From a virus: a stretch of DNA of 64,000 nt. The position numbers and the translations under genes are program-made. Below are positions 6,662 to 57,951 of this stretch, piece by piece. The notes under the pieces were generated by a model. It saw nothing but the letters and a program-made list of their open reading frames with translations. It searched no databases and had not been told where the DNA came from. The DNA lies in IMG/VR virus record IMGVR_UViG_3300021956_000001. The stretch is one strand, 5' to 3'. The stretch's first letter is position 1, and each line of letters starts with the position of its first letter.

Positions 6662-6984
6662 GGGGGCGACTGGTTTTGACAGGTTACCACTAATTAATAC
6701 AATCAGCCAGAGAGATAACTGTAAACTAAGGTGAATTTAATTAATTGGCAACAAAACAACTCGTGTAGTAGCTCTAGGAGCAAACGCACAAATCGAAGCT
6801 AACATGAACAAAGTATTCTCTCTATTGGGAGAAGAAGTTGCTGTAGCAGCCTAAATTGAATAAGGATTTCTCTGTTAGATTAAACAGAGTGGTGGATCGT
6901 TAAGCCTAGCTTGACCCTAAATAAGCTGTATAAATTGTATTAATGAAAGTAGTTTGGACGTGGGTTCGATTCCCACCGCCTCCA
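6662..6984 (+). ncRNA. ssrA: tmRNA (SsrA), full length, phage-encoded
   Basis: 5' GGGGGCGACTGGTTTTGACAGG and 3' GGACGTGGGTTCGATTCCCACCGCCTCCA match tmRNA ends; 7-bp acceptor (6662-68 / 6977-83) with G3:U70; T-arm GTGGG/CCCAC; internal tag frame 6747-6851 ending ..EEVAVAA then TAA 6852-54. Confidence 0.85.
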
Positions 6985-7138
6985 CTAGAACTTGGAATTG
7001 TAGATACATTGATTCCTTACAAACCTTGTAATGTTGGCCGTTATTATGAAGTGCTAATCTGCAATTCTGTTACATTACGTGTACATTTATTAAATAGCGA
7101 ATAATAACATAGGTGACTAATAGGAAAGACTATTAAAT

Positions 7139-7327
7139 GATTGAGTGGCGGAATAGTTAGGAATATTAAAGGTCCTTTCATGGTAGACGCTTTATGTATT
7201 TGTGATATAAAAAAATTGCTATGGTCAGAGTCTTGGCAAAGTTACCGCATAGATGGTGTACATAACACCTAAACAATACATAAGATGGTGTACAACAATA
7301 CAGGTTCGAATCCTGTCTCAATCACAG
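7139..7327 (+). other. tRNA-like element (tRNA-Leu-like D-arm and canonical T-arm/acceptor, about 110 nt too long)
   Basis: GATTGAG (7139-45) is the exact complement of CTCAATC (7320-26). T-arm ACAGG-TTCGAAT-CCTGT. 5' part TGGCGGAAT...GGTAGACGC resembles class II tRNA-Leu D-arm with an insertion. No clean cloverleaf could be folded by eye. Confidence 0.3.
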
Positions 7328-7458
7328 CAGTTGCTTGATGTCAAATATGTACAGCAACAGACATTGGAGAAATTTGGCTTCTCATGAATGTTAAGTCCTA
7401 TCCACACAGAGAAGGAGTTGAGTACTTACGGAGGAAGTAGAGTCCAATCTCAACAACA

Positions 7459-7486
7459 AGGCTATCAGAAATGGTAGCCTTTTTTA
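7459..7486 (+). terminator. rho-independent terminator closing the RNA island
   Basis: AGGCTA (7459-64) / TAGCCT (7475-80) followed by TTTTTTATTTT. Confidence 0.65.
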
Positions 7487-7517
7487 TTTTATATTAATCC
7501 TTAATAACTATAAAAAC

Positions 7518-7664
7518 ATGAAAACAATTAAAATGAAACCAACTGAGTTTTATCAGTTCAGACAATTAGCATTTGCAATGAGTGTTGCATTTGTATGTAC
7601 AATAGCACATGGTGTGTATATTGTAGAGGCCAATATAAATCAACTTGAGAAGTTGGGTTATTAA
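7518..7664 (+). CDS. hypothetical protein (48 aa, below cutoff)
   Basis: Hand translation MKTIKMKPTEFYQFRQLAFAMSVAFVCTIAHGVYIVEANINQLEKLGY; preceded by AATCCTTAATAAC motif; replaces antisense ORF 7558..7764. Confidence 0.4.
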   Translation: MKTIKMKPTEFYQFRQLAFAMSVAFVCTIAHGVYIVEANINQLEKLGY

Positions 7665-7677
7665 GGAGGGGAATGAT

Positions 7678-7707
7678 GGGCTCTGTAACAGGAGCCCTTA
7701 TTCTTTT
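7678..7707 (+). terminator. hairpin plus T-rich tail
   Basis: GGGCTC (7678-83) / GAGCCC (7692-97) then TTATTCTTTT. Confidence 0.45.
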
Positions 7708-7729
7708 AATCAATAAATAAATTATTATT

Positions 7730-7942
7730 ATGTCAGTCATTAAACGAAAAATAACACAAAACATGATGCTTGATCATAATGGTGAGCAATATGATTTAGG
7801 AAAATTAGTTACAACAACATTAGGTTATTGTACAGCAAGTAAAAAACGTATCCCATCATTCAAGTGTATAAAAACAGGAAAAACATTTACAGATGTAAAT
7901 AAGTTATCACGACATTTAGCAATATTACTAAAAAACAAATAA
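7730..7942 (+). CDS. hypothetical protein (70 aa)
   Basis: ATG ORF; ends ..LLKNK* inside the AAAAACAAATAAGATATG junction motif. Confidence 0.5.
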   Translation: MSVIKRKITQNMMLDHNGEQYDLGKLVTTTLGYCTASKKRIPSFKCIKTGKTFTDVNKLSRHLAILLKNK

Positions 7943-7945
7943 GAT

Positions 7946-8680
7946 ATGAAAACATTTGTAATGGGAGATATCCATGGTAATCATAGAGCAATGTTACAAT
8001 GCTTTGAGAGAAGTGGATTTGACAAACAGAAAGACACACTTATACAATTAGGTGATGTAGCAGATGGATGGAGTGAAACTGCAGAATGTGTAGAAGAACT
8101 ATTATCCATCAAGAATCTAATTAGTATTAGAGGTAATCATGATGTATGGGTTAATGATTGGTTCCAAATGGGCCAAACACCTATATTATGGACAGAACAA
8201 GGTGGTAAAGCAACTATGGCTTCCTATGTAAGAACAGGATTGTTAGTAGATCAACATCATAAAGACTTCTGGAAAGACCAACAAGATTGGTATATAGATG
8301 ATCAGAATAGATTGTTTATACATGCTGGTTGGGATTATCATTATGAAGGACCATGGGAGAAACAAGCTGGTTTAAGAGTGAATGCTGGTACAACAGCAAG
8401 AGAATGTCATTGGGATAGAAGCCTTATACTTGGTGCTAGATCAGCATTTGGTAAGAAGAATAATCCTGCTGGTAAGTTTAAACCTCTTGAACAGTTTCAT
8501 GAAATCTATGTTGGACACACTGCTGATAACACAGGACCTCATCAATATGGTAATCTATGGAATCTTGATAGTGGAGCTGGTTGGACTGGTAAACTTACCA
8601 TCATGAACATAGATAGTAAAGAATATTGGCAAAGTGATTTCGCAACCTTATTATACCCAGAAGAAAATGGAAGACGATAA
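7946..8680 (+). CDS. calcineurin-like metallophosphoesterase (lambda-PPase/ApaH-type Ser/Thr phosphatase)
   Basis: Motifs GDIHGN, GDVADG, RGNHD, later HAG and GH. Confidence 0.85.
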   Translation: MKTFVMGDIHGNHRAMLQCFERSGFDKQKDTLIQLGDVADGWSETAECVEELLSIKNLISIRGNHDVWVNDWFQMGQTPILWTEQGGKATMASYVRTGLLVDQHHKDFWKDQQDWYIDDQNRLFIHAGWDYHYEGPWEKQAGLRVNAGTTARECHWDRSLILGARSAFGKKNNPAGKFKPLEQFHEIYVGHTADNTGPHQYGNLWNLDSGAGWTGKLTIMNIDSKEYWQSDFATLLYPEENGRR

Positions 8681-9080
8681 ACCAGAATACTTAGGATTCT
8701 TTAGTAAGTGGATTAAGCCAGTACATGAATCAAAGAAAAAAGCACAAGCTCAAGAAGAAGAAGAAGAAGAGCTAGCAGATAGAACTGATGAGTTAGCTGT
8801 GCGAATGGAACAAGATGAAATAAGACGTAAACTAAAATTATCTATATCACAAAGTATGTTTATGTTCAACTCTACACCACCAACTCCTAATGGATATATT
8901 TATGGAGCAGATGCAATTTCTGAAGAAGTAAGACCTGAACCAATTGATATGACTCAATACATCCATAAAGATGAAATGGTTCAGATATTATTAGATTCAA
9001 GACATGCTATGTTTAATGATAGAATTCCATCAGTATTAGAAGTGTTGGAATGGATAGATCAACGTGAAAGAAAAAAATGA
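8667..9080 (+). CDS. hypothetical acidic protein
   Basis: Start moved to internal ATG 8667 (MEDDKPEYLG..), 14-nt overlap with phosphatase; the track start 8634 would overlap 47 nt. Confidence 0.5.
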   Translation: MEDDKPEYLGFFSKWIKPVHESKKKAQAQEEEEEELADRTDELAVRMEQDEIRRKLKLSISQSMFMFNSTPPTPNGYIYGADAISEEVRPEPIDMTQYIHKDEMVQILLDSRHAMFNDRIPSVLEVLEWIDQRERKK

Positions 9081-9364
9081 ATACGCAAAGAGAACTAGAG
9101 ATTAGAGCTATACACATTATATATACCAAATTATACAAGAATGCATATCCTTCAGCTGATTATGAAAGATTAGTTCAGAATGCAATTGTAAAAGATGGTA
9201 AAAAGCTCATTAAAAGTAAAGCATATACAATATCGGAAGCAAAATTTAACAAGATTGTTGATCAAGAACTCGATTGGGGGAACTTCAGCAATCTATCAAG
9301 AACAATTATTAAACAGACAATCATCGAAGGGTGTTGTCCTAAAATCGAAGAGACATGCAAATAG
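9077..9364 (+). CDS. hypothetical protein (95 aa)
   Basis: ATGA overlap with upstream stop. Confidence 0.55.
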   Translation: MNTQRELEIRAIHIIYTKLYKNAYPSADYERLVQNAIVKDGKKLIKSKAYTISEAKFNKIVDQELDWGNFSNLSRTIIKQTIIEGCCPKIEETCK

Positions 9365-9588
9365 TAAACGGAAAATGGGTAGACAAATTTGAAAACCCAG
9401 TAGATCATTTTAATGTAAGTGAATTAGTTGAGATTTCAGACCATGTAACAGCGTTATATGGTAAAGACATCACCTATGAGAGAATTAAGCTTGTAGGATC
9501 ATTAAAATCACTTAATTCAAAGCAAGAAAGCATTATTGCTGACTTGTTACAAGACCATTCACTAATTTCTAAACTAGCAGGATATTAA
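9355..9588 (+). CDS. hypothetical protein (77 aa)
   Basis: ATG ORF, short overlap with upstream gene. Confidence 0.5.
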   Translation: MQIVNGKWVDKFENPVDHFNVSELVEISDHVTALYGKDITYERIKLVGSLKSLNSKQESIIADLLQDHSLISKLAGY

Positions 9589-9590
9589 TC

Positions 9591-9752
9591 ATGAGAAATA
9601 TTAAATCATTAACAAGATTATTACAAATATGCTTGTTAGCATACGGATGTTATTTATTAGACCAAGGATCAATAGGATTTGGTCTATTCCAGGTATTATT
9701 AAACGGAATGAGTTTACATGCTCAATTCATAAATATTTATAAAGATGAGTAA
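9591..9752 (+). CDS. hypothetical small membrane protein (53 aa, below cutoff)
   Basis: Hand translation MRNIKSLTRLLQICLLAYGCYLLDQGSIGFGLFQVLLNGMSLHAQFINIYKDE. Confidence 0.35.
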   Translation: MRNIKSLTRLLQICLLAYGCYLLDQGSIGFGLFQVLLNGMSLHAQFINIYKDE

Positions 9753-10077
9753 GTATTATATACTAGAGGATAAAACACCTGTCCAAGTGGCAGGTGTTAA
9801 AGAATGGGCTGAGAAATTTCAAGGTACTAGATCTGTAGATAGAGATACATTTGGTAAAGTGTTAGTATCTACAGTGTTTTTAGGGATAGATCATTCTTGG
9901 GATGGTGGTAAACCATTATTGTTTGAGACAATGATATTTGGTGGTAAACATGATGAATATCAAATGAGATGTTCTACATGGGATGAAGCTATTGAGCAAC
10001 ATGAAGAAGCTTGTAAACTTGTAAGTAATAAATTTGTATTATGGTTAAGAAGAAAATTAAAGACTATGAAGATCTAA
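9745..10077 (+). CDS. hypothetical protein (110 aa)
   Basis: ATG ORF; motif VSTVFLGIDHSW..PLLFETMIFGG recalls a widespread phage family of unknown function (from memory only). Confidence 0.6.
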   Translation: MSKYYILEDKTPVQVAGVKEWAEKFQGTRSVDRDTFGKVLVSTVFLGIDHSWDGGKPLLFETMIFGGKHDEYQMRCSTWDEAIEQHEEACKLVSNKFVLWLRRKLKTMKI

Positions 10078-11684: not shown

Positions 11685-12056
11685 ATGGAAAAAGAATTTA
11701 TACCATACGAACAAGCATTAAAACTTAAAGAATTAGGATTTGATGAAGAATGTTTTGGAATTTATGGAAAGAATGGAGAGGAATTATATAAGGTTGTAAA
11801 AGATAAATTTGATTCTATAGATGATTTACATTTCATAAAAGCACCACTTTACCAACAAGCATTTAGATGGTTTAGAGAGAAGTACGGTTATGATGTGACA
11901 ATTAAAAAATGTACACCAAGTGAATATAAGTTTGAAATCGAACAATTATTTGTCAAGGGGGATAGTTACTATTTTATCGATTTCCCGTTCACATCCTACG
12001 AAGAAGCAGAACTTGAATGTCTTAAAAAACTAATAGAATTATGCAAGAACAACTAA
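11685..12056 (+). CDS. hypothetical protein, paralogue of 12041..12355
   Basis: N-terminus IPYEQALKLKELGFDE resembles ITFETAKLASEKGYS; both end in E-A-x-x-x-x-L-x-x-L-I-E. Confidence 0.6.
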   Translation: MEKEFIPYEQALKLKELGFDEECFGIYGKNGEELYKVVKDKFDSIDDLHFIKAPLYQQAFRWFREKYGYDVTIKKCTPSEYKFEIEQLFVKGDSYYFIDFPFTSYEEAELECLKKLIELCKNN

Positions 12057-12355
12057 TAACATTTGAAACAGCTAAGTTAGCTAGTGAAAAAGGGTATTCA
12101 CCTATTTTATTAGGTGAAGTATTTAGAAAAAGCCTACCAACTCAATCACTTCTTCAAAAATGGTTAAGAGAAGTTCATAATATTCATATTGACATCCCTT
12201 ATATGGATGAAGTGCTAATATTTGGATATAAAATAACTACAATAGCCAATAATACAGAAGTTGTTGAAATATATAAATACAACTTGTATGAAGAAGCATT
12301 GGAGATTGGATTACAAGAAGCACTTAAACTAATAGAAATTGTTAAAAACAAATAA
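12041..12355 (+). CDS. hypothetical protein, paralogue of 11685..12056
   Basis: See 11685..12056; ends ..VKNK* in AAAAACAAATAA motif. Confidence 0.55.
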   Translation: MQEQLITFETAKLASEKGYSPILLGEVFRKSLPTQSLLQKWLREVHNIHIDIPYMDEVLIFGYKITTIANNTEVVEIYKYNLYEEALEIGLQEALKLIEIVKNK

Positions 12356-50991: not shown

Positions 50992-51265
50992 TTTTCTTTT
51001 TTTCTGGTGCTGGTTGAGTAGCTGGTGCAGCTTTTTCTTTAATGATTACAGTTTTACCTGGAGCAGCTTGTTGTTGCTTTTGTTGGTTAGTGTTTGTAAT
51101 ATTAATTACTGGAGCAGGTGCAGGAGCTGCAACTTCTTGCTTAGCTTCTTCTTTATCTTCACCATTTAACTTAGTTGTTACAAATCCACCTACAGCCACT
51201 GTAATTGTACTTGCCAATCCTATAAGGATGTTCTTGATTGAGTTTCCTCCTTGTTCTTCGCTCAT
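50972..51265 (-). CDS. TM protein with low-complexity A/P/Q/K tail (97 aa)
   Basis: ILIGLASTITVAVGGFVTT helix. Confidence 0.5.
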   Translation of the reverse strand: MSEEQGGNSIKNILIGLASTITVAVGGFVTTKLNGEDKEEAKQEVAAPAPAPVINITNTNQQKQQQAAPGKTVIIKEKAAPATQPAPEKKKNEEEPW

Positions 51266-51633
51266 AATAAATTAATTAAGGTTTTACCTATTTGTTGATT
51301 GTTTGAGTTATATAATTGAAGCTCGTATGAACTTCTTGGTAATGCTTTTGTATATACAGATAGTAAGTTATCTCCAGCTTTAGCATCTACTGATTCTGAA
51401 GAAACTGTCTTACCAGATAAGTCAACTATTTTAATTGTCACTTTATCTGCTGCTTCTAGTCTTACATTCATCTGTGCTTCTGCAGTAACAAAGTTTGAAG
51501 CAAGTTTAATACCAACAGTGCTAAGTCCTAACTCTGCAGGAACAGAAGATGAAGGAGCAACAATTGCATTATCAACCTCTGAACAAGAAAACATAAATGT
51601 AAACAATATAATTGGGATGAGTAATCTTTTCAT
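51262..51633 (-). CDS. small lipoprotein whose mature part resembles a T9SS type-A C-terminal sorting domain
   Basis: MKRLLIPIILFTFMFSC; KVTIKIVDLSGKTVSSESVDAKAGDNLLSVYTKALPRSSYELQLYNSNNQQIGKTLINL matches the beta-sandwich pattern of por_Secre_tail domains. Confidence 0.45.
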   Translation of the reverse strand: MKRLLIPIILFTFMFSCSEVDNAIVAPSSSVPAELGLSTVGIKLASNFVTAEAQMNVRLEAADKVTIKIVDLSGKTVSSESVDAKAGDNLLSVYTKALPRSSYELQLYNSNNQQIGKTLINLL

Positions 51634-53228
51634 TATTGTATATTTAAAATTACTTTGTTAGCTTTAGTATCTACAGCTTCTGCAAAGTAGGTGAATATTA
51701 ATCCTGATGTGTTGGTTAATTGTGCTTTTGGTGTAAATATAAGTTTGTAAGGAGTTCCTTGTTTAACTGTAGAAGCTCCTGTCTTATCTATTGATCCAAA
51801 TGTTATAATGTTCTCTTTATGTGTAGAGAAGTTTGAAATTGTATTTCCTGTATCAAATGTTACATTATCAAATGTAAGTTTGCTGTCATCATATCCTATT
51901 TGATATTCAGCTCCAGCTAAACCTGTAGCATTTAATCCTACTGTTACAACCACTTTACCATTAACTAATGCTGTATTAATTGATGTATCTGTAGTTGATG
52001 TTAATTGAGCTGATATACCAGATACAGAAAGTTGCTTACCAGCTGTATTAGTTGTACCAGAAACTGATAGTGGAGAGGAGTGAGAGAAATCAAGATCTCC
52101 TGCCCATGCATACGATAGATTATAGACTTCATTATCTGCTGTAGGTGTAATATTTGTTGGACCAGTTGGGTTAGCAAAGCTAGATGTAAATCCTGATAAG
52201 AACTTAGTAGGTTTAGTCATGTCTGTTGTAGGAAGTAATAATCCTTGTACACCAGAAAGATCTACACCCATCACTGTGGCAAATAAGTAATATGCATCTT
52301 GGCTATCAAAGTTTTGGTCCTGTGTAACATTAGCAATCCTATTCTCTAATATTGTAGAGAAGTATGGATCTGTATTATTAATACCTCTATCATTAATTGC
52401 TTTGAATGCCTTATATGCATCTGTAACAGTAATAATATTACTAGGGACATTTTGCCCCCATGCAGGATTTACCATTACTAGGTATTGTTTATTCTTCTCT
52501 ACTTTATCTGTTAGGAATTCTCCAGCACTATCTAATGGTCCTACAGCAACTGGTTGTGGATTAGTAGTCCAATCAACAACTCCTTGTGCATTTGTAGCCA
52601 TCACTTGTATAGCATGTTTTGTAATGTCATACCCAGCAGGAAATGCCACTTTAAACTTAACACTAGATACAAGTCTTGATACACTGTTTAAATTCAACCA
52701 TAGTACAGTAGATCCAACATTAGATACAGCTTGACCATTTCTTAATGTTGCATAAGCTGCGTGTAGTTTATGTATTTGTTGATATGATGTATTATCTTTA
52801 ATTGTATATCTCTGTGTAGCAATCACTCCTGATATAGGAGCATCTGTTCTTTGTACAGAAATTTGTGCAACATTCCAATCAGGATTTGGAGAATAACTCA
52901 TACCATATCTATATTGACCATAAAGATCTCCTACAGCAATCGTAGAATTATAATTGTAAGTATAGTTTGCCCAGTGAGTATAGAATGTTTGTGTAGAATT
53001 CCCTTGTAAGAATGTTGTAGAGTTTGGTACCAATTCCAAATGTTTATTTGAATAATGATATCTAAACCATAAATAGTTTACATCTAATCCTTGATTATTC
53101 ACTACATATTGTAATGTAATAACATCACCCACTTTATATGGACCTGGTTCTACCACTACTTGATCAATAATAACTTGACCAAAGGATAACATAGGTAGCA
53201 ATAATAACAACGCTAATAGCTTCTTCAT
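51633..53228 (-). CDS. 531-aa secreted protein (beta-rich; weak cohesin/Ig-like C-terminal region)
   Basis: Signal peptide MKKLLALLLLLPMLSFGQ; ..VVVTVGLNATGLAGAEYQIGYDDSKLTFDNV.. Confidence 0.6.
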   Translation of the reverse strand: MKKLLALLLLLPMLSFGQVIIDQVVVEPGPYKVGDVITLQYVVNNQGLDVNYLWFRYHYSNKHLELVPNSTTFLQGNSTQTFYTHWANYTYNYNSTIAVGDLYGQYRYGMSYSPNPDWNVAQISVQRTDAPISGVIATQRYTIKDNTSYQQIHKLHAAYATLRNGQAVSNVGSTVLWLNLNSVSRLVSSVKFKVAFPAGYDITKHAIQVMATNAQGVVDWTTNPQPVAVGPLDSAGEFLTDKVEKNKQYLVMVNPAWGQNVPSNIITVTDAYKAFKAINDRGINNTDPYFSTILENRIANVTQDQNFDSQDAYYLFATVMGVDLSGVQGLLLPTTDMTKPTKFLSGFTSSFANPTGPTNITPTADNEVYNLSYAWAGDLDFSHSSPLSVSGTTNTAGKQLSVSGISAQLTSTTDTSINTALVNGKVVVTVGLNATGLAGAEYQIGYDDSKLTFDNVTFDTGNTISNFSTHKENIITFGSIDKTGASTVKQGTPYKLIFTPKAQLTNTSGLIFTYFAEAVDTKANKVILNIQ

Positions 53229-54417: not shown

Positions 54418-54425
54418 TATCTTTG
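54418..54425 (+). promoter_or_regulatory. Bacteroidota-type -7 box TATCTTTG
   Basis: 19 nt upstream of ATG 54444. Confidence 0.45.
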
Positions 54426-54443
54426 ATTTTTAAAACCAAGCTC

Positions 54444-56531
54444 ATGAAAATACTATATCTAGCACCTCATTTATCTACAGGAGGAATGCCAGCTTTTCTA
54501 TTGAAAACAATAGAGACACTTAAAGATGATGTTGAAATATGCGTTGTAGAATATGCATGTCATAGTCTTGATTATGTAGTACAACGTAATGCCATTATGG
54601 ATCTTGTTCCTGTATATACATTACATGAAGATAAGATGGAACTATTCAATGTAATAGAAGAATTCAAACCAGATGTAATTCATATACACGAACCATCAGA
54701 AAGATTGGATAGAAGGATGATTACTAAGCTATATGATAACAATAGGACCTATCGTATTGTAGAAACATGTCATGATGTATCATTCAATCCAGATGAAGAA
54801 AAAATATTTCATCCAGACTATTATGCATTCTGTACTCCTTACCATGTAGATACATTTGGTAAGATGCCATCTATGTATAGTGTTATAGAGTTTCCTATTG
54901 ATGATTATAGATTATCTGAAGAAGATGTATATGAAACTAAGATAGCTTTAGGTATGAATCTTAAAATGAAGCATGTTGTGAATGTTGGTCTTTGGACTCC
55001 TGGTAAGAATCAAGGTGAAATGTTAGAACTAGCTAGACAAATGCCAGATGTAGCATTTCATTTTGTAGGTAATCAAGCTGGAAACTTTGAACACTATTGG
55101 GGACCATTGATGAAAGCTGGAGTTCCAGATAATGTAAAGATATGGGGAGAAAGAAGTGATGCTGATAGATTTATAGATGCAGCAGATGTGTTTATGTTCA
55201 ACAGCACATGGGAATGTAATCCTTTGGTAATAAGAGAAGCTATATCTAAGGGTAAGAAGATCTTAGCTAGAAATCTTCCTCAGTACAAGAATATGTTCAC
55301 TAGATACATTACAAATCTAGATCCAAGAAAACTAAAGAATCAATTGTCAGATCTTCTTGAAGATAAAACAACTTATGATATTCTTAAGAATAACACAACA
55401 GCTAATTTTAGAAATAAATTAATGTCACTATATAGAGTGGTAACAGAATTTGATATTATGAAAAATGATGTAAAAGATTATAAGATTACGCAACACTTTG
55501 TAGGTCAACCATTTATAGAAATTACAGGAACAAGTGATAGTAATTTTACTATCGAATTCTATGATGAAACAGATAACTTATTCCATAGAGATGTAGTGAA
55601 GATTAATCACTGGGTAAAACTTAGTAGAGAATATTACACACAATGGACAACTAAAGTGTATAAAGATGATGAGCTAGTGTATACTAACTTATTAAACTAT
55701 GCAGATCAAAGAGTGTATATTGCTTTTGATAGTTCTTCATTAGGAGATAATATTGCTTGGATGCCTTATGTAGAAGAATTCAGAAAGAAGCATCATTGTA
55801 AAATGATTGTTTCTACATTCAAAAACTTCTTGTTTGAATCTCAGTACCCAGAGATTGAATTTGTTGAACCAGGATCCATAGTTACTAACTTGTATGGGAT
55901 GTATAAAATTGGTTGGTTCTATGATTATAACAAGGAACCTACATTACCAAACACTATACCATTACAAATGGCAGCTACAAATATTTTAGGTCTTGAGTAC
56001 ACAGAAATAAAACCTGAGATTATAGATCATAAAGATGATAGTGTTAGTGGATACATTACAATAGCTACTAATAGTACAGCAGGATGTAAGTTCTGGACTA
56101 GAGAGGGCTGGCAAGAAGTAATTAACTATTTACATGGAGAAGGCTGGTTAGTAATCAATACATCTAAAGAATCTAATCCTTTTGATAACTGTCAACCACT
56201 TCTTAATACAAGTATGGATAATACGATCACAGCTATATCTAATAGCAAGTTCTTCATTGGACTATCTAGTGGATTATCATGGTTAGCCTGGGCATTAGAA
56301 ACTCCTGTTATAATGATTTCTAACTTTACAGAAGAAGGTCATGAATTCAGTTGTCATAGAGTGACTAATACCAATGTATGTTATGGATGTTGGAATGATC
56401 CTAAATATAAGTTTGATAGAGGAGATTGGGATTGGTGTCCTGTACATAAGGGTACAGACAGACAATTTGAATGTCACAAAGAAATAACACCAGAGATGGT
56501 TATTACAGAAATAAAAAAGCTCCTTAATTAG
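54444..56531 (+). CDS. two-domain glycosyltransferase: N-terminal GT4 (GT-B) plus C-terminal GT9 heptosyltransferase-like domain
   Basis: Track start 54423 is TTG; ATG 54444 gives MKILYLAPHLSTGGMP (GT4 N-terminus), ECNPLVIREA (ExxxxxxxE). C-terminal RVYIAFDSSSLGDNIAWMPYV, ITIATNSTAGCKFWTREGW, FIGLSSGLSWLAWAL (GT9 blocks). Then a Cys-rich tail. Confidence 0.7.
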   Translation: MKILYLAPHLSTGGMPAFLLKTIETLKDDVEICVVEYACHSLDYVVQRNAIMDLVPVYTLHEDKMELFNVIEEFKPDVIHIHEPSERLDRRMITKLYDNNRTYRIVETCHDVSFNPDEEKIFHPDYYAFCTPYHVDTFGKMPSMYSVIEFPIDDYRLSEEDVYETKIALGMNLKMKHVVNVGLWTPGKNQGEMLELARQMPDVAFHFVGNQAGNFEHYWGPLMKAGVPDNVKIWGERSDADRFIDAADVFMFNSTWECNPLVIREAISKGKKILARNLPQYKNMFTRYITNLDPRKLKNQLSDLLEDKTTYDILKNNTTANFRNKLMSLYRVVTEFDIMKNDVKDYKITQHFVGQPFIEITGTSDSNFTIEFYDETDNLFHRDVVKINHWVKLSREYYTQWTTKVYKDDELVYTNLLNYADQRVYIAFDSSSLGDNIAWMPYVEEFRKKHHCKMIVSTFKNFLFESQYPEIEFVEPGSIVTNLYGMYKIGWFYDYNKEPTLPNTIPLQMAATNILGLEYTEIKPEIIDHKDDSVSGYITIATNSTAGCKFWTREGWQEVINYLHGEGWLVINTSKESNPFDNCQPLLNTSMDNTITAISNSKFFIGLSSGLSWLAWALETPVIMISNFTEEGHEFSCHRVTNTNVCYGCWNDPKYKFDRGDWDWCPVHKGTDRQFECHKEITPEMVITEIKKLLN

Positions 56532-56773: not shown

Positions 56774-57115
56774 TTAAAAATTAATATTTGGAATATATCC
56801 TATTAAATCAAATAATGTTCTATAATCAACAGTTATTTCTACTTCATTTGGTATATTTTTATTTGATATCATTACTATACAATCATCAATTAATTCAACA
56901 TTTGTATTTGGATTATCAGAATGATTAGTATATCTTCCTAAATCATCTGTTTCATTCCAGGGTTCCTGCATTGTTTCTTTTTGCCAAAGATATCTTGACT
57001 CTTCACTTTGAGCCTCTTTAGTTACCCATTTACCAATAATAGTATCTATATTAATATTAGATGTAGATACTATTTTAATATTATTTAAATCAGATTTATC
57101 TATTTTATAATTCAT
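56774..57115 (-). CDS. minimal SET-domain protein (putative protein lysine methyltransferase), 113 aa
   Basis: LGRYTNHSDNPNT (cf. RFxNHSCxPN) and NEVEITVDYR (cf. GEELTxDY); size like chlorovirus vSET; TAATG-coupled to the upstream gene. Confidence 0.5.
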   Translation of the reverse strand: MNYKIDKSDLNNIKIVSTSNINIDTIIGKWVTKEAQSEESRYLWQKETMQEPWNETDDLGRYTNHSDNPNTNVELIDDCIVMISNKNIPNEVEITVDYRTLFDLIGYIPNINF

Positions 57116-57951
57116 TACTTGATATTATGAGTAAGTATATTATTTGCAAAATAAGTATGTGAAGGAGATAATGATAATGGATATATTGTTTTAATTTCTT
57201 TATTAAATTTAACAGAAGTTACTTCTATTTCATTTTTATTAATATCATATAAATAATCTCCAATTTGAATAGATCCTATAGTATCAAATCTCCATAAACC
57301 ATCTCTTTTATATAATTGACTATGGAAAGGAGTTGCTTCTAATAATCCATCATTTATCATAACAGTTTGATCAGCAGTTTGTTTTTCAATTTTAATAATA
57401 GGAGAATCTATTCTTGATTCTTGTAAATTATAAGTATTCCATTTATAAAGTTCTTCTACATCATTTGTATCTGTTAATGTACTTATATTAGATGACATTA
57501 ATAACTGATCAACATAAAGATTTTCTATTGGTACCTGTTGTCCATTCACAAGTGTTATTAAAGTTCCTTCTACAAAACATATAACACAAGCACTTGCTGC
57601 TGCTAAAACAGTAGTACTACTACTCCATGATCTAGCTATACTTCCATCAGAATAAAATGCAGTAGAAGCGTATGTAGTTCCTCCTGAATTAGTATAAATC
57701 TTAGTTGCTGTACTTAAATCAGATGAATTTATATAAAAATATCCTGCTGATACTCCACTACAAGCTATAGTTTTTGTACTTCCATAATATAAATATACAT
57801 AAGTTAGTGAACTGTATCCATAAAATTCAGATATAGCATCAGGAGTAGTCTTTCCAGCTGCAACACTTAATGTGTGCAATGAATAACTAGAGCTACCTAA
57901 TGCTGTATGAATTTGAGAAATCGATAAAGGTCCTGAACTTGGTAATGCCAT
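57115..57951 (-). CDS. protein with C-terminal Hint (intein/hedgehog-type autoprocessing) domain
   Basis: Block A CFVEGTLITLVNG at Cys125, block B TPFH, blocks F/G YPLSLSPSHTYFANNILTHN followed only by IK-stop. Confidence 0.7.
   Translation of the reverse strand: MALPSSGPLSISQIHTALGSSSYSLHTLSVAAGKTTPDAISEFYGYSSLTYVYLYYGSTKTIACSGVSAGYFYINSSDLSTATKIYTNSGGTTYASTAFYSDGSIARSWSSSTTVLAAASACVICFVEGTLITLVNGQQVPIENLYVDQLLMSSNISTLTDTNDVEELYKWNTYNLQESRIDSPIIKIEKQTADQTVMINDGLLEATPFHSQLYKRDGLWRFDTIGSIQIGDYLYDINKNEIEVTSVKFNKEIKTIYPLSLSPSHTYFANNILTHNIK

Follow-up and report, generated by a model that had tools for sequence, protein, structure and literature searches.

What can a protein-splicing fold do at the very end of a phage protein, where almost nothing is left to be spliced on? 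The question is raised by a 278-amino-acid (aa) protein with the N-terminus MALPSSGPLSISQI, encoded on the minus strand at positions 57115..57951 of the IMG/VR record IMGVR_UViG_3300021956_000001, whose whole stretch of 64,000 nucleotides is called the window here. The protein ends in a Hint domain, and its gene is the third in the order collagen-like S74 fibre gene, DUF7936 gene, Hint gene, SET-domain gene. The domain is a genuine Hint fold, closest to the type-A bacterial intein-like (BIL) domains. It probably removes itself through a thioester at Cys125, freeing a 124-aa product, and the whole protein is best explained as a small accessory adhesin of the fibre apparatus, made as a precursor with a C-terminal Hint domain.

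A terminal Hint domain closest to type-A BILs

The Hint blocks can be read directly from the DNA. Cys125 (codon 57577-57579) opens block A (CFVEGTLITLVNG), block B is T207-P-F-H210, and block F/G is YPLSLSPSH265TYFANNILTH275N276, with the His-Asn codons at 57124-57129 and the Asn codon at 57124-57126. Behind Asn276 come only Ile277, Lys278 and the stop codon, and the residue at +1 is isoleucine, not Cys, Ser or Thr. The N-terminal sequence, the blocks within residues 125-276 and the two-residue tail agree with a preliminary description of this locus. Its phrase 'no C-extein' holds insofar as only two residues follow, but the tail is not arbitrary, the His-Asn-x-Lys end being conserved. Across a close set of 21 relatives, Cys125, His210, His275 and Asn276 are invariant and the block B threonine is nearly so. 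No open reading frame (ORF) of at least 50 aa lies on the strand opposite 57115..57951.

AlphaFold2, run with a 114-sequence alignment, models residues 125-278 with a predicted local distance difference test score (pLDDT) above 90, reaching 92-98 over residues 130-270, and the domain has the beta-fold of the HINT superfamily. The best match of the model in the PDB, found with Foldseek, is BIL2 of the Tetrahymena BUBL1 locus (6y75/6tmm, E = 2e-10), followed by the BIL of Clostridium thermocellum (2lwy, E = 6e-9). Dozens of mini-inteins (~50) and hedgehog 1at0 (E = 4e-6) rank after the BILs, and the best 50 of the 57 matches at E <= 1e-3 are all Hint-fold proteins (BILs, inteins, hedgehog). At the sequence level the ranking of BILs against inteins comes from a 12-sequence family profile compared with PDB chains, Pfam and NCBIfam having no dedicated BIL model. 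The profile matches BIL2 and the C. thermocellum BIL at E ~2e-10 and the best true intein at 4e-5, a difference of ~100,000-fold (about five orders of magnitude). Fold and profile thus both place type-A BILs nearest, ahead of inteins, in agreement with the bacterial intein-like resemblance proposed in the preliminary description. The Pfam matches to the domain itself are sub-threshold (Intein_splicing 15.3 bits, PT-HINT 13.2 bits), NCBIfam gives no match for the Hint, SET or DUF7936 proteins, and in PHROGs the protein matches just two families of unknown function, both weakly (E = 0.0039 and 0.036, residues 97-160), with none for the N-terminal module.

Type-A BILs are characterized by Cys1, a TxxH motif, a terminal His-Asn and the absence of a +1 nucleophile (PMC4031507, PMC7765530), the C-terminal His-Asn being what separates them from type-B BILs (PMC4031507). 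Their usual outcome is self-cleavage, though a free amine can also serve to join their flanks (PMC4031507, PMC7765530). The domain studied here begins with Cys, carries block B T-x-x-H, ends in His-Asn, has no Cys, Ser or Thr at +1, resembles BILs in sequence more than it does inteins or Hog domains, has the mini size of 152 aa and no homing endonuclease, and is carried, like the solved type-A BILs (2lwy; 6y75/6tmm), by variable, non-housekeeping proteins. What sets it apart is its position. Known BILs are internal, with polypeptide on both sides: ubiquitin-like domains flank them in BUBL, and in bacteria they lie within secreted hypervariable proteins. Here the domain is terminal, with 0-10 residues after the Asn and a conserved basic residue at +1/+2; it belongs to phage fibre modules, is often linked to a SET gene, and is only 21-23% identical to the solved BILs. 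Because only Ile-Lys follows Asn276, and because 111 of 140 relatives likewise have <=10 residues after the Asn, the domain is filed as a terminal variant of the type-A BIL and not as a typical member.

Other Hint classes fit less well. The mini-inteins (Ssp DnaB, Npu DnaE, gp41-1) share the fold, the size of ~150 aa and blocks A, B, F and G, but the present domain does not interrupt a conserved host protein and has a hydrophobic +1 residue and a two-residue C-extein. A canonical intein is rejected on the C-flank of two residues, the Ile at +1 and the lack of an extein ligation partner; the preliminary description had likewise denied it the status of a splicing intein, which the missing +1 nucleophile, the missing homing endonuclease and the extreme C-terminal position support. 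The Hedgehog/Hog domain (1at0) offers the likeness of a C-terminal Hint that would thioester-activate and release the upstream polypeptide. Hog domains, however, are without the His-Asn that the family here keeps, whereas the present protein ends two residues after His-Asn, has an Ile-Cys junction and not the conserved Gly-Cys one, lacks a sterol-recognition region and stands in a bacterial/phage context; a Hog assignment is therefore rejected. The PT-HINT module of polymorphic toxins (PF07591) is rejected as well, its score of 13.2 bits lying under the cut-off of 27.7 and no toxin domain being present; the downstream gene encodes a SET methyltransferase, not the immunity protein of a toxin-immunity layout.

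The junctions and the fate of the Hint domain

Upstream of the Hint domain, residues 49-124 belong to a recurring domain of ~70 aa in which two cysteines are conserved (the tip domain), recovered by jackhmmer from the sequences gathered in this analysis. It stands in one to three copies directly upstream of the Hint domain in many relatives, and also forms the very C-terminus of fibre-like proteins of 1215-1286 aa that have no Hint and whose genes lie just upstream of Hint genes. These Hint-less proteins end in C-M-I, C-I-I or C-T-I immediately before the stop, aligned to C122-V-I124 of the query, whose next residue is C125. Because the Hint-less homologues end there, cleavage between Ile124 and Cys125 would recreate a natural C-terminus. 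This match of the junction with natural tip-domain termini, read from aligned sequences, is the strongest new argument for removal of the Hint domain.

The proposed pathway starts from a precursor in which a tip domain, predicted to be of disulfide type, is set on a docking N-terminal module and followed by the type-A BIL-like Hint. After folding, Cys125 would attack the Ile124 carbonyl in an N-S acyl shift assisted by Thr207/His210, forming a thioester. The thioester would then be resolved, most probably by hydrolysis, to give a mature protein of 124 aa (~13 kDa), and cyclization of Asn276, with His265/His275, would clip off the Ile-Lys tail. Both the thioester and the Asn276 cyclization are expected since the residues for the two half-reactions are conserved. 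Simple release is the most probable outcome because the junction coincides with natural termini, the linker is unconstrained, and type-A BILs yield mainly cleavage products (PMC4031507). The Hint domain would thus be a self-removing C-terminal cassette, comparable in function to the self-cleaving S74 chaperone of the neighbouring fibre. Cleavage itself, water as the acceptor, and the roles of the conserved lysine and the SET gene are what we infer from these observations.

The N-terminal module (residues 1-48) recurs without the rest of the protein. About 50 matches confined to it, at 60-83% identity, lie at the N-termini of other metagenomic proteins, whose C-terminal parts are lectin-like or adhesin-like (Laminin_G_3, BNR/sortilin, Gly_rich_2, Lcl_C, DUF7483), and genes of N-module proteins are directly preceded by S74-type fibre genes. 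The module also heads many distant Hint-ended proteins, and it is presumed to be a docking module for the virion or fibre apparatus. Two Hint-less N-module proteins, P0076 and P0091, end in a C-terminal cysteine (...GPTPC and ...SILPC), which may be a coincidence or reflect a different terminal chemistry.

Conservation at the C-terminal junction extends over a large family. A word-indexed search gives 196 homologues, and an exhaustive phmmer search with the 154-aa Hint against 1.84 billion representatives gives 816 clusters at E <= 1e-3, 187 at E <= 1e-10 and 32 at E <= 1e-30, each cluster being a representative at 50% identity. Among the best new representatives, 111/140 have <=10 residues after the terminal Asn, 46/140 have <=2, and 123/140 carry Lys or Arg at +1/+2. 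Cys1 is found in 89/89 copies and His-Asn in 91/91, down to ~30% identity. Of 77 close copies, 75 have the lysine at +2 and two have it at +1; of the 300 distinct HN-ended copies across all sets, 191 have it at +2 and 69 at +1 (260/300, 87%), while 9 have Arg in its place (e.g. terminal HNDR, and HN-RA-C) and only 13 have Cys, Ser or Thr at +1. The N-terminal side is much freer: the residue before Cys1 is not conserved (Gly is the commonest family-wide, 47/202), the junction is usually a G/P/S/T-rich linker, and the parts before the Hint domain are diverse (the N-module, fn3, DUF5977, Gly_rich_2, collagen, BACON). From this non-conserved, G/P/S/T-rich linker it follows that the Hint domain behaves as a cassette appended to many N-terminal parts.

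Several observations weigh against self-removal as the whole account. His-Asn and the following Lys are strongly conserved though simple N-terminal cleavage needs neither, which suggests that chemistry at the C-terminal junction, be it ligation or a coupling of both steps, matters. Self-removal alone hardly explains tandem arrays of two to five Hint domains and does not account for the conserved SET linkage, and the tip domain is modelled at low confidence (AlphaFold2 pLDDT <50 over residues 49-124).

The conserved C-flank would be accounted for if it were itself the acceptor. In such a mini-splicing or lysine-capture reaction the Cys125 thioester would be attacked by an amine of its own flank. 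On the route known for type-A BILs this would be the alpha-amine that Ile277 gains once Asn276 has cyclized; in a BIL2-like manner it would be the epsilon-amine of Lys278. The mature product would then end in Ile-Lys joined by a peptide or isopeptide bond. The His-Asn with Lys at +1/+2 in 260/300 copies, including those at 30% identity and those with longer tails, agrees with this, and there is precedent in type-A BILs, which ligate flanks without a side-chain nucleophile (PMC4031507), and in the nearest solved relative, BIL2, which forms an isopeptide bond to lysine (PMC8616854). Own-flank ligation is nevertheless unlikely: the Hint-less tip homologues end in C-x-I without an x-K extension, the few copies (9) with Arg for Lys point to a role in charge or structure more than to a nucleophile, and a free dipeptide or a single lysine is a poor ligation partner. 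A slightly lower probability is given to conjugation in trans, by which the Ile124 carbonyl would be passed to another molecule (such as a small amine, some component of the host surface, or a fibre or baseplate protein through one of its lysines), anchoring the adhesin covalently in a hedgehog- or BUBL-like way. BIL2 acts as a 'dispensing platform' conjugating its N-flank to other proteins (PMC8616854), the gene lies in a fibre module and has a docking-type N-module, and Gly is the commonest -1 residue (47/202); yet no conserved acceptor or partner is identified, neither the -1 residue nor the linker is conserved, the N-module already gives a non-covalent route of attachment, and the same tip domain works without a Hint in other proteins.

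Ranked behind conjugation in trans, and improbable, is a broader scheme in which the terminal Hint, the near-invariant Lys at +1/+2 and the mini-SET protein form a so far unknown phage protein-ligation system. The tip thioester would here be captured by a lysine epsilon-amine, of Lys278 or of a virion or host partner, giving an isopeptide-anchored adhesin, much as BUBL BIL2 carries out an ATP-independent 'ubiquitination'. The SET protein would gate the reaction by methylating the acceptor lysine, and tandem Hint arrays and Cys-rich tails would be further uses of the same chemistry. The least probable of the readings weighed is that the domain is a selfish or relic gene-end parasite that merely removes itself, or else an uncleaved structural or binding domain. 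Hint cassettes scattered over unrelated N-terminal architectures, with tandem copies, are compatible with it, as is the intein traffic in this group indicated by a true split intein with a putative free-standing endonuclease in a related phage contig. Against it stand the lack of a homing endonuclease and the persistence, in Flavobacterium chromosomes as well as over 816 clusters, of intact catalytic residues and a conserved C-flank; were the domain purely structural, Cys1, TxxH and HN would not stay invariant.

Variants and distribution of the family

The arrangement of the Hint domains varies among relatives. Double Hints joined by HN-IK-PPP-C are found in the closest phage relatives (P0002/3/5/6/7). 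Proteins of ~910 aa on viral contigs carry three to five tandem Hints with two-residue linkers (HN-RA-C, HN-KF-C) and end in HNK (L050 220-2961; L059 4624-7356; L061 4168-6903; L071, L073-L075, L077); judged from the motif ...LRLLELNTDTGF..., their N-terminus looks ATP-grasp-like. Another subclass of terminal Hints continues after HN-x-K into a Cys-rich tail, of about 20-40 aa among the family variants and 23-42 aa in the examples given here, e.g. KKDALCSPEDYCTRGH... (L033/L034 3088-6537, L038 2057-5506, L042 3190-6540, L048 2923-6558; proteins P0160, P0169, P0195, P0218, P0238, P0241 and P0245). The Hint may release or ligate this tail as a small disulfide-rich peptide.

On contig L009, positions 6917-9553 hold an ATP-dependent DNA ligase gene that is fractured. 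Its N-part ends in the N-half of a Hint (...SRKLDG, then CLSEDTLIEF...), a 295-aa ORF (7779-8666) lies between the ligase halves, and the next ORF begins with a Hint C-half (...FFANNVLVHN, then CRC...) fused to the ligase remainder. This layout matches the split-intein 'fractured gene' arrangement (PMC2677866).

The 278-aa protein is present on nine metagenome contigs, and its full-length homologues are 45-59% identical. Searched by tblastn against 50,697 GenBank phages, it finds only Phage NCTB, at 26% identity, and a megablast of window positions 40000-64000 against the same collection finds no relative. A single-sequence scan of IMG/VR returned nothing, whereas an alignment-based scan found relatives. 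Three NCTB proteins (LT598654; BN7874_132, _135 and _136), recorded as 'intein domain proteins', have C-terminal Hints with short tails (AVMVAKK, KVD, APVDQKH) in a tail-fibre module; only 26% identical to the query, they have no SET gene noted beside them. Public records also hold several entries named 'Hint domain containing protein [uncultured Caudovirales phage]'. The NCTB and Caudovirales entries are the same phenomenon, already public and annotated automatically; a paper that mentions NCTB contains no analysis of its Hint proteins, and a literature search found no paper analysing these terminal-Hint phage proteins. The identity of the domain will not surprise an intein specialist; the novelty lies in how large the family is, in its association with phage adhesins, in the evidence at the junction, in the conserved lysine and in the pairing with SET.

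Among cellular genomes the close clade (55-62% identity) is found only in Flavobacterium species (29/41 loci, often with two genes per locus), from which we infer that the phage host is likely Flavobacterium or a close relative. The copy in F. johnsoniae (CP158862, 2.39-2.41 Mb) sits in a phage-tail-like cluster (Gp53-like_C, Phage_tail_APC). Homology between DUF7936 and the Phage_tail_APC protein that takes its place in F. johnsoniae was considered and rejected, the two showing no similarity.

The fibre module and the linked SET gene

The features of the Hint gene and its neighbours are collected in the table. The gene order supports the fibre association and the position between fibre and SET genes given in the preliminary description, with the DUF7936 gene intervening before the Hint gene. 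None of the three parts of the protein has a paralogue elsewhere in the window.

Table. Positions of the Hint gene, its parts and the adjoining genes in the window.
Feature	Position	Strand	Description
Whole Hint gene	57115..57951	-	N-module, tip domain, Hint domain and Ile-Lys tail, 278 aa
N-terminal module, aa 1-48	57808..57951	-	MALPSSGPLSISQI...EFYGYSS; AlphaFold2 pLDDT 76-91, three short helices
Tip domain, aa 49-124	57580..57807	-	~75 aa, two Cys; Cys64...Cys122-Val-Ile124; would carry the thioester
Hint domain, aa 125-276	57124..57579	-	152 aa; Cys125, Thr207/His210, His265, His275-Asn276
C-flank Ile277-Lys278	57118..57123	-	hydrophobic residue then Lys after His-Asn, the family hallmark
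SET-domain gene, 113 aa	56774..57115	-	Pfam SET E = 4e-9, above cut-off; translationally coupled (TAATG)
DUF7936 gene, 121 aa	57958..58323	-	conserved between fibre and Hint genes
Collagen-like tail fibre, 1113 aa	58323..61664	-	G-T-S repeats; C-terminal Peptidase_S74 intramolecular-chaperone domain
Second collagen-like fibre protein, 614 aa	61690-63534	-	G-T-S repeats

The stop codon of the Hint gene (TAA, 57115-57117) shares one base with the ATG of the SET gene. The catalytic motifs of the SET protein are intact, GRYTNHSDNPN and EITVDY corresponding to GRYxNHSxxPN and E-I-x-V-D-Y in the family. A SET gene of ~110 aa lies directly downstream of the Hint gene in 10/10 close-clade phage loci (7 distinct proteins) and also in 10 Flavobacterium loci, its start falling between -22 and +21 nt from the Hint stop among relatives. 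A Hint-SET fusion by frameshift or readthrough is rejected on this variable spacing. Conversely, 4/4 full-length small-SET members recovered in a reciprocal scan of IMG/VR follow a Hint gene, while the common phage SET proteins of 270-300 aa in that scan have no Hint nearby. The distant Hint subfamilies are without a SET gene, with one exception in L059, where a weak SET-like ORF (7516-7953, E = 2.5e-4) lies 160 nt downstream of the tandem-Hint gene. Part of the linkage may be inherited synteny of fibre modules. The two genes may also be linked in function, e.g. if the SET protein methylates the conserved Lys or lysines of structural proteins.

The fibre operon also brings together two different C-terminal modules of self-cleaving type, S74 and Hint. 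The resemblance is a functional analogy only, that of a C-terminal module on a phage fibre-type protein that would remove itself once assembly is complete: S74 is a Ser-Lys dyad protease, whereas the Hint domain would act through a Cys thioester and Asn cyclization, and the folds are unrelated. In the relative L003, DUF7936 occurs twice (9639-9998 and 11777-12118), bracketing the Hint-SET pair, with the second copy following SET.

More broadly, the window, part of a 114-kb JGI metagenome contig, is phage sequence of 33% G+C with rIIA/rIIB-like genes, a bacterial-type RecA, an endolysin and collagen-like fibres. Convergent with the fibre operon, positions 54423-56531 (+) encode a 702-aa protein with a GT1/GT4-type glycosyltransferase and a GT9 (heptosyltransferase-like) domain, which may glycosylate structural proteins; L003 has a Glycos_transf_2 protein at the equivalent position. 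A 123-aa protein (51262-51633, -) has a weak match to Por_Secre_tail of the type IX secretion system (T9SS), and a 531-aa protein (51633-53228, -) contains a cohesin-like domain. The T9SS-type and cohesin-like proteins hint at a Bacteroidota host and at unusual virion or surface proteins.

The chemistry of Hint and BIL domains is well understood from inteins, hedgehog and a few bacterial proteins, and the biological role of BILs is largely unknown. Here a BIL-like Hint caps fibre-module, adhesin-like phage proteins and their prophage-like counterparts in Flavobacterium. If the Hint removes itself, phage receptor-binding proteins would have, beside the S74 chaperone, a second and chemically distinct way to mature; a Hint that transfers its cargo would act as a ligase for virion building or host attachment. 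Either way, these compact modules (~150 aa, minimal C-flank), predicted to form thioesters and to cleave themselves, are of biotechnological interest. The conserved Hint-SET pair hints that lysines of phage structural proteins may be methylated, a subject essentially unexplored, and the family as a whole offers a concrete, testable setting for BIL function.

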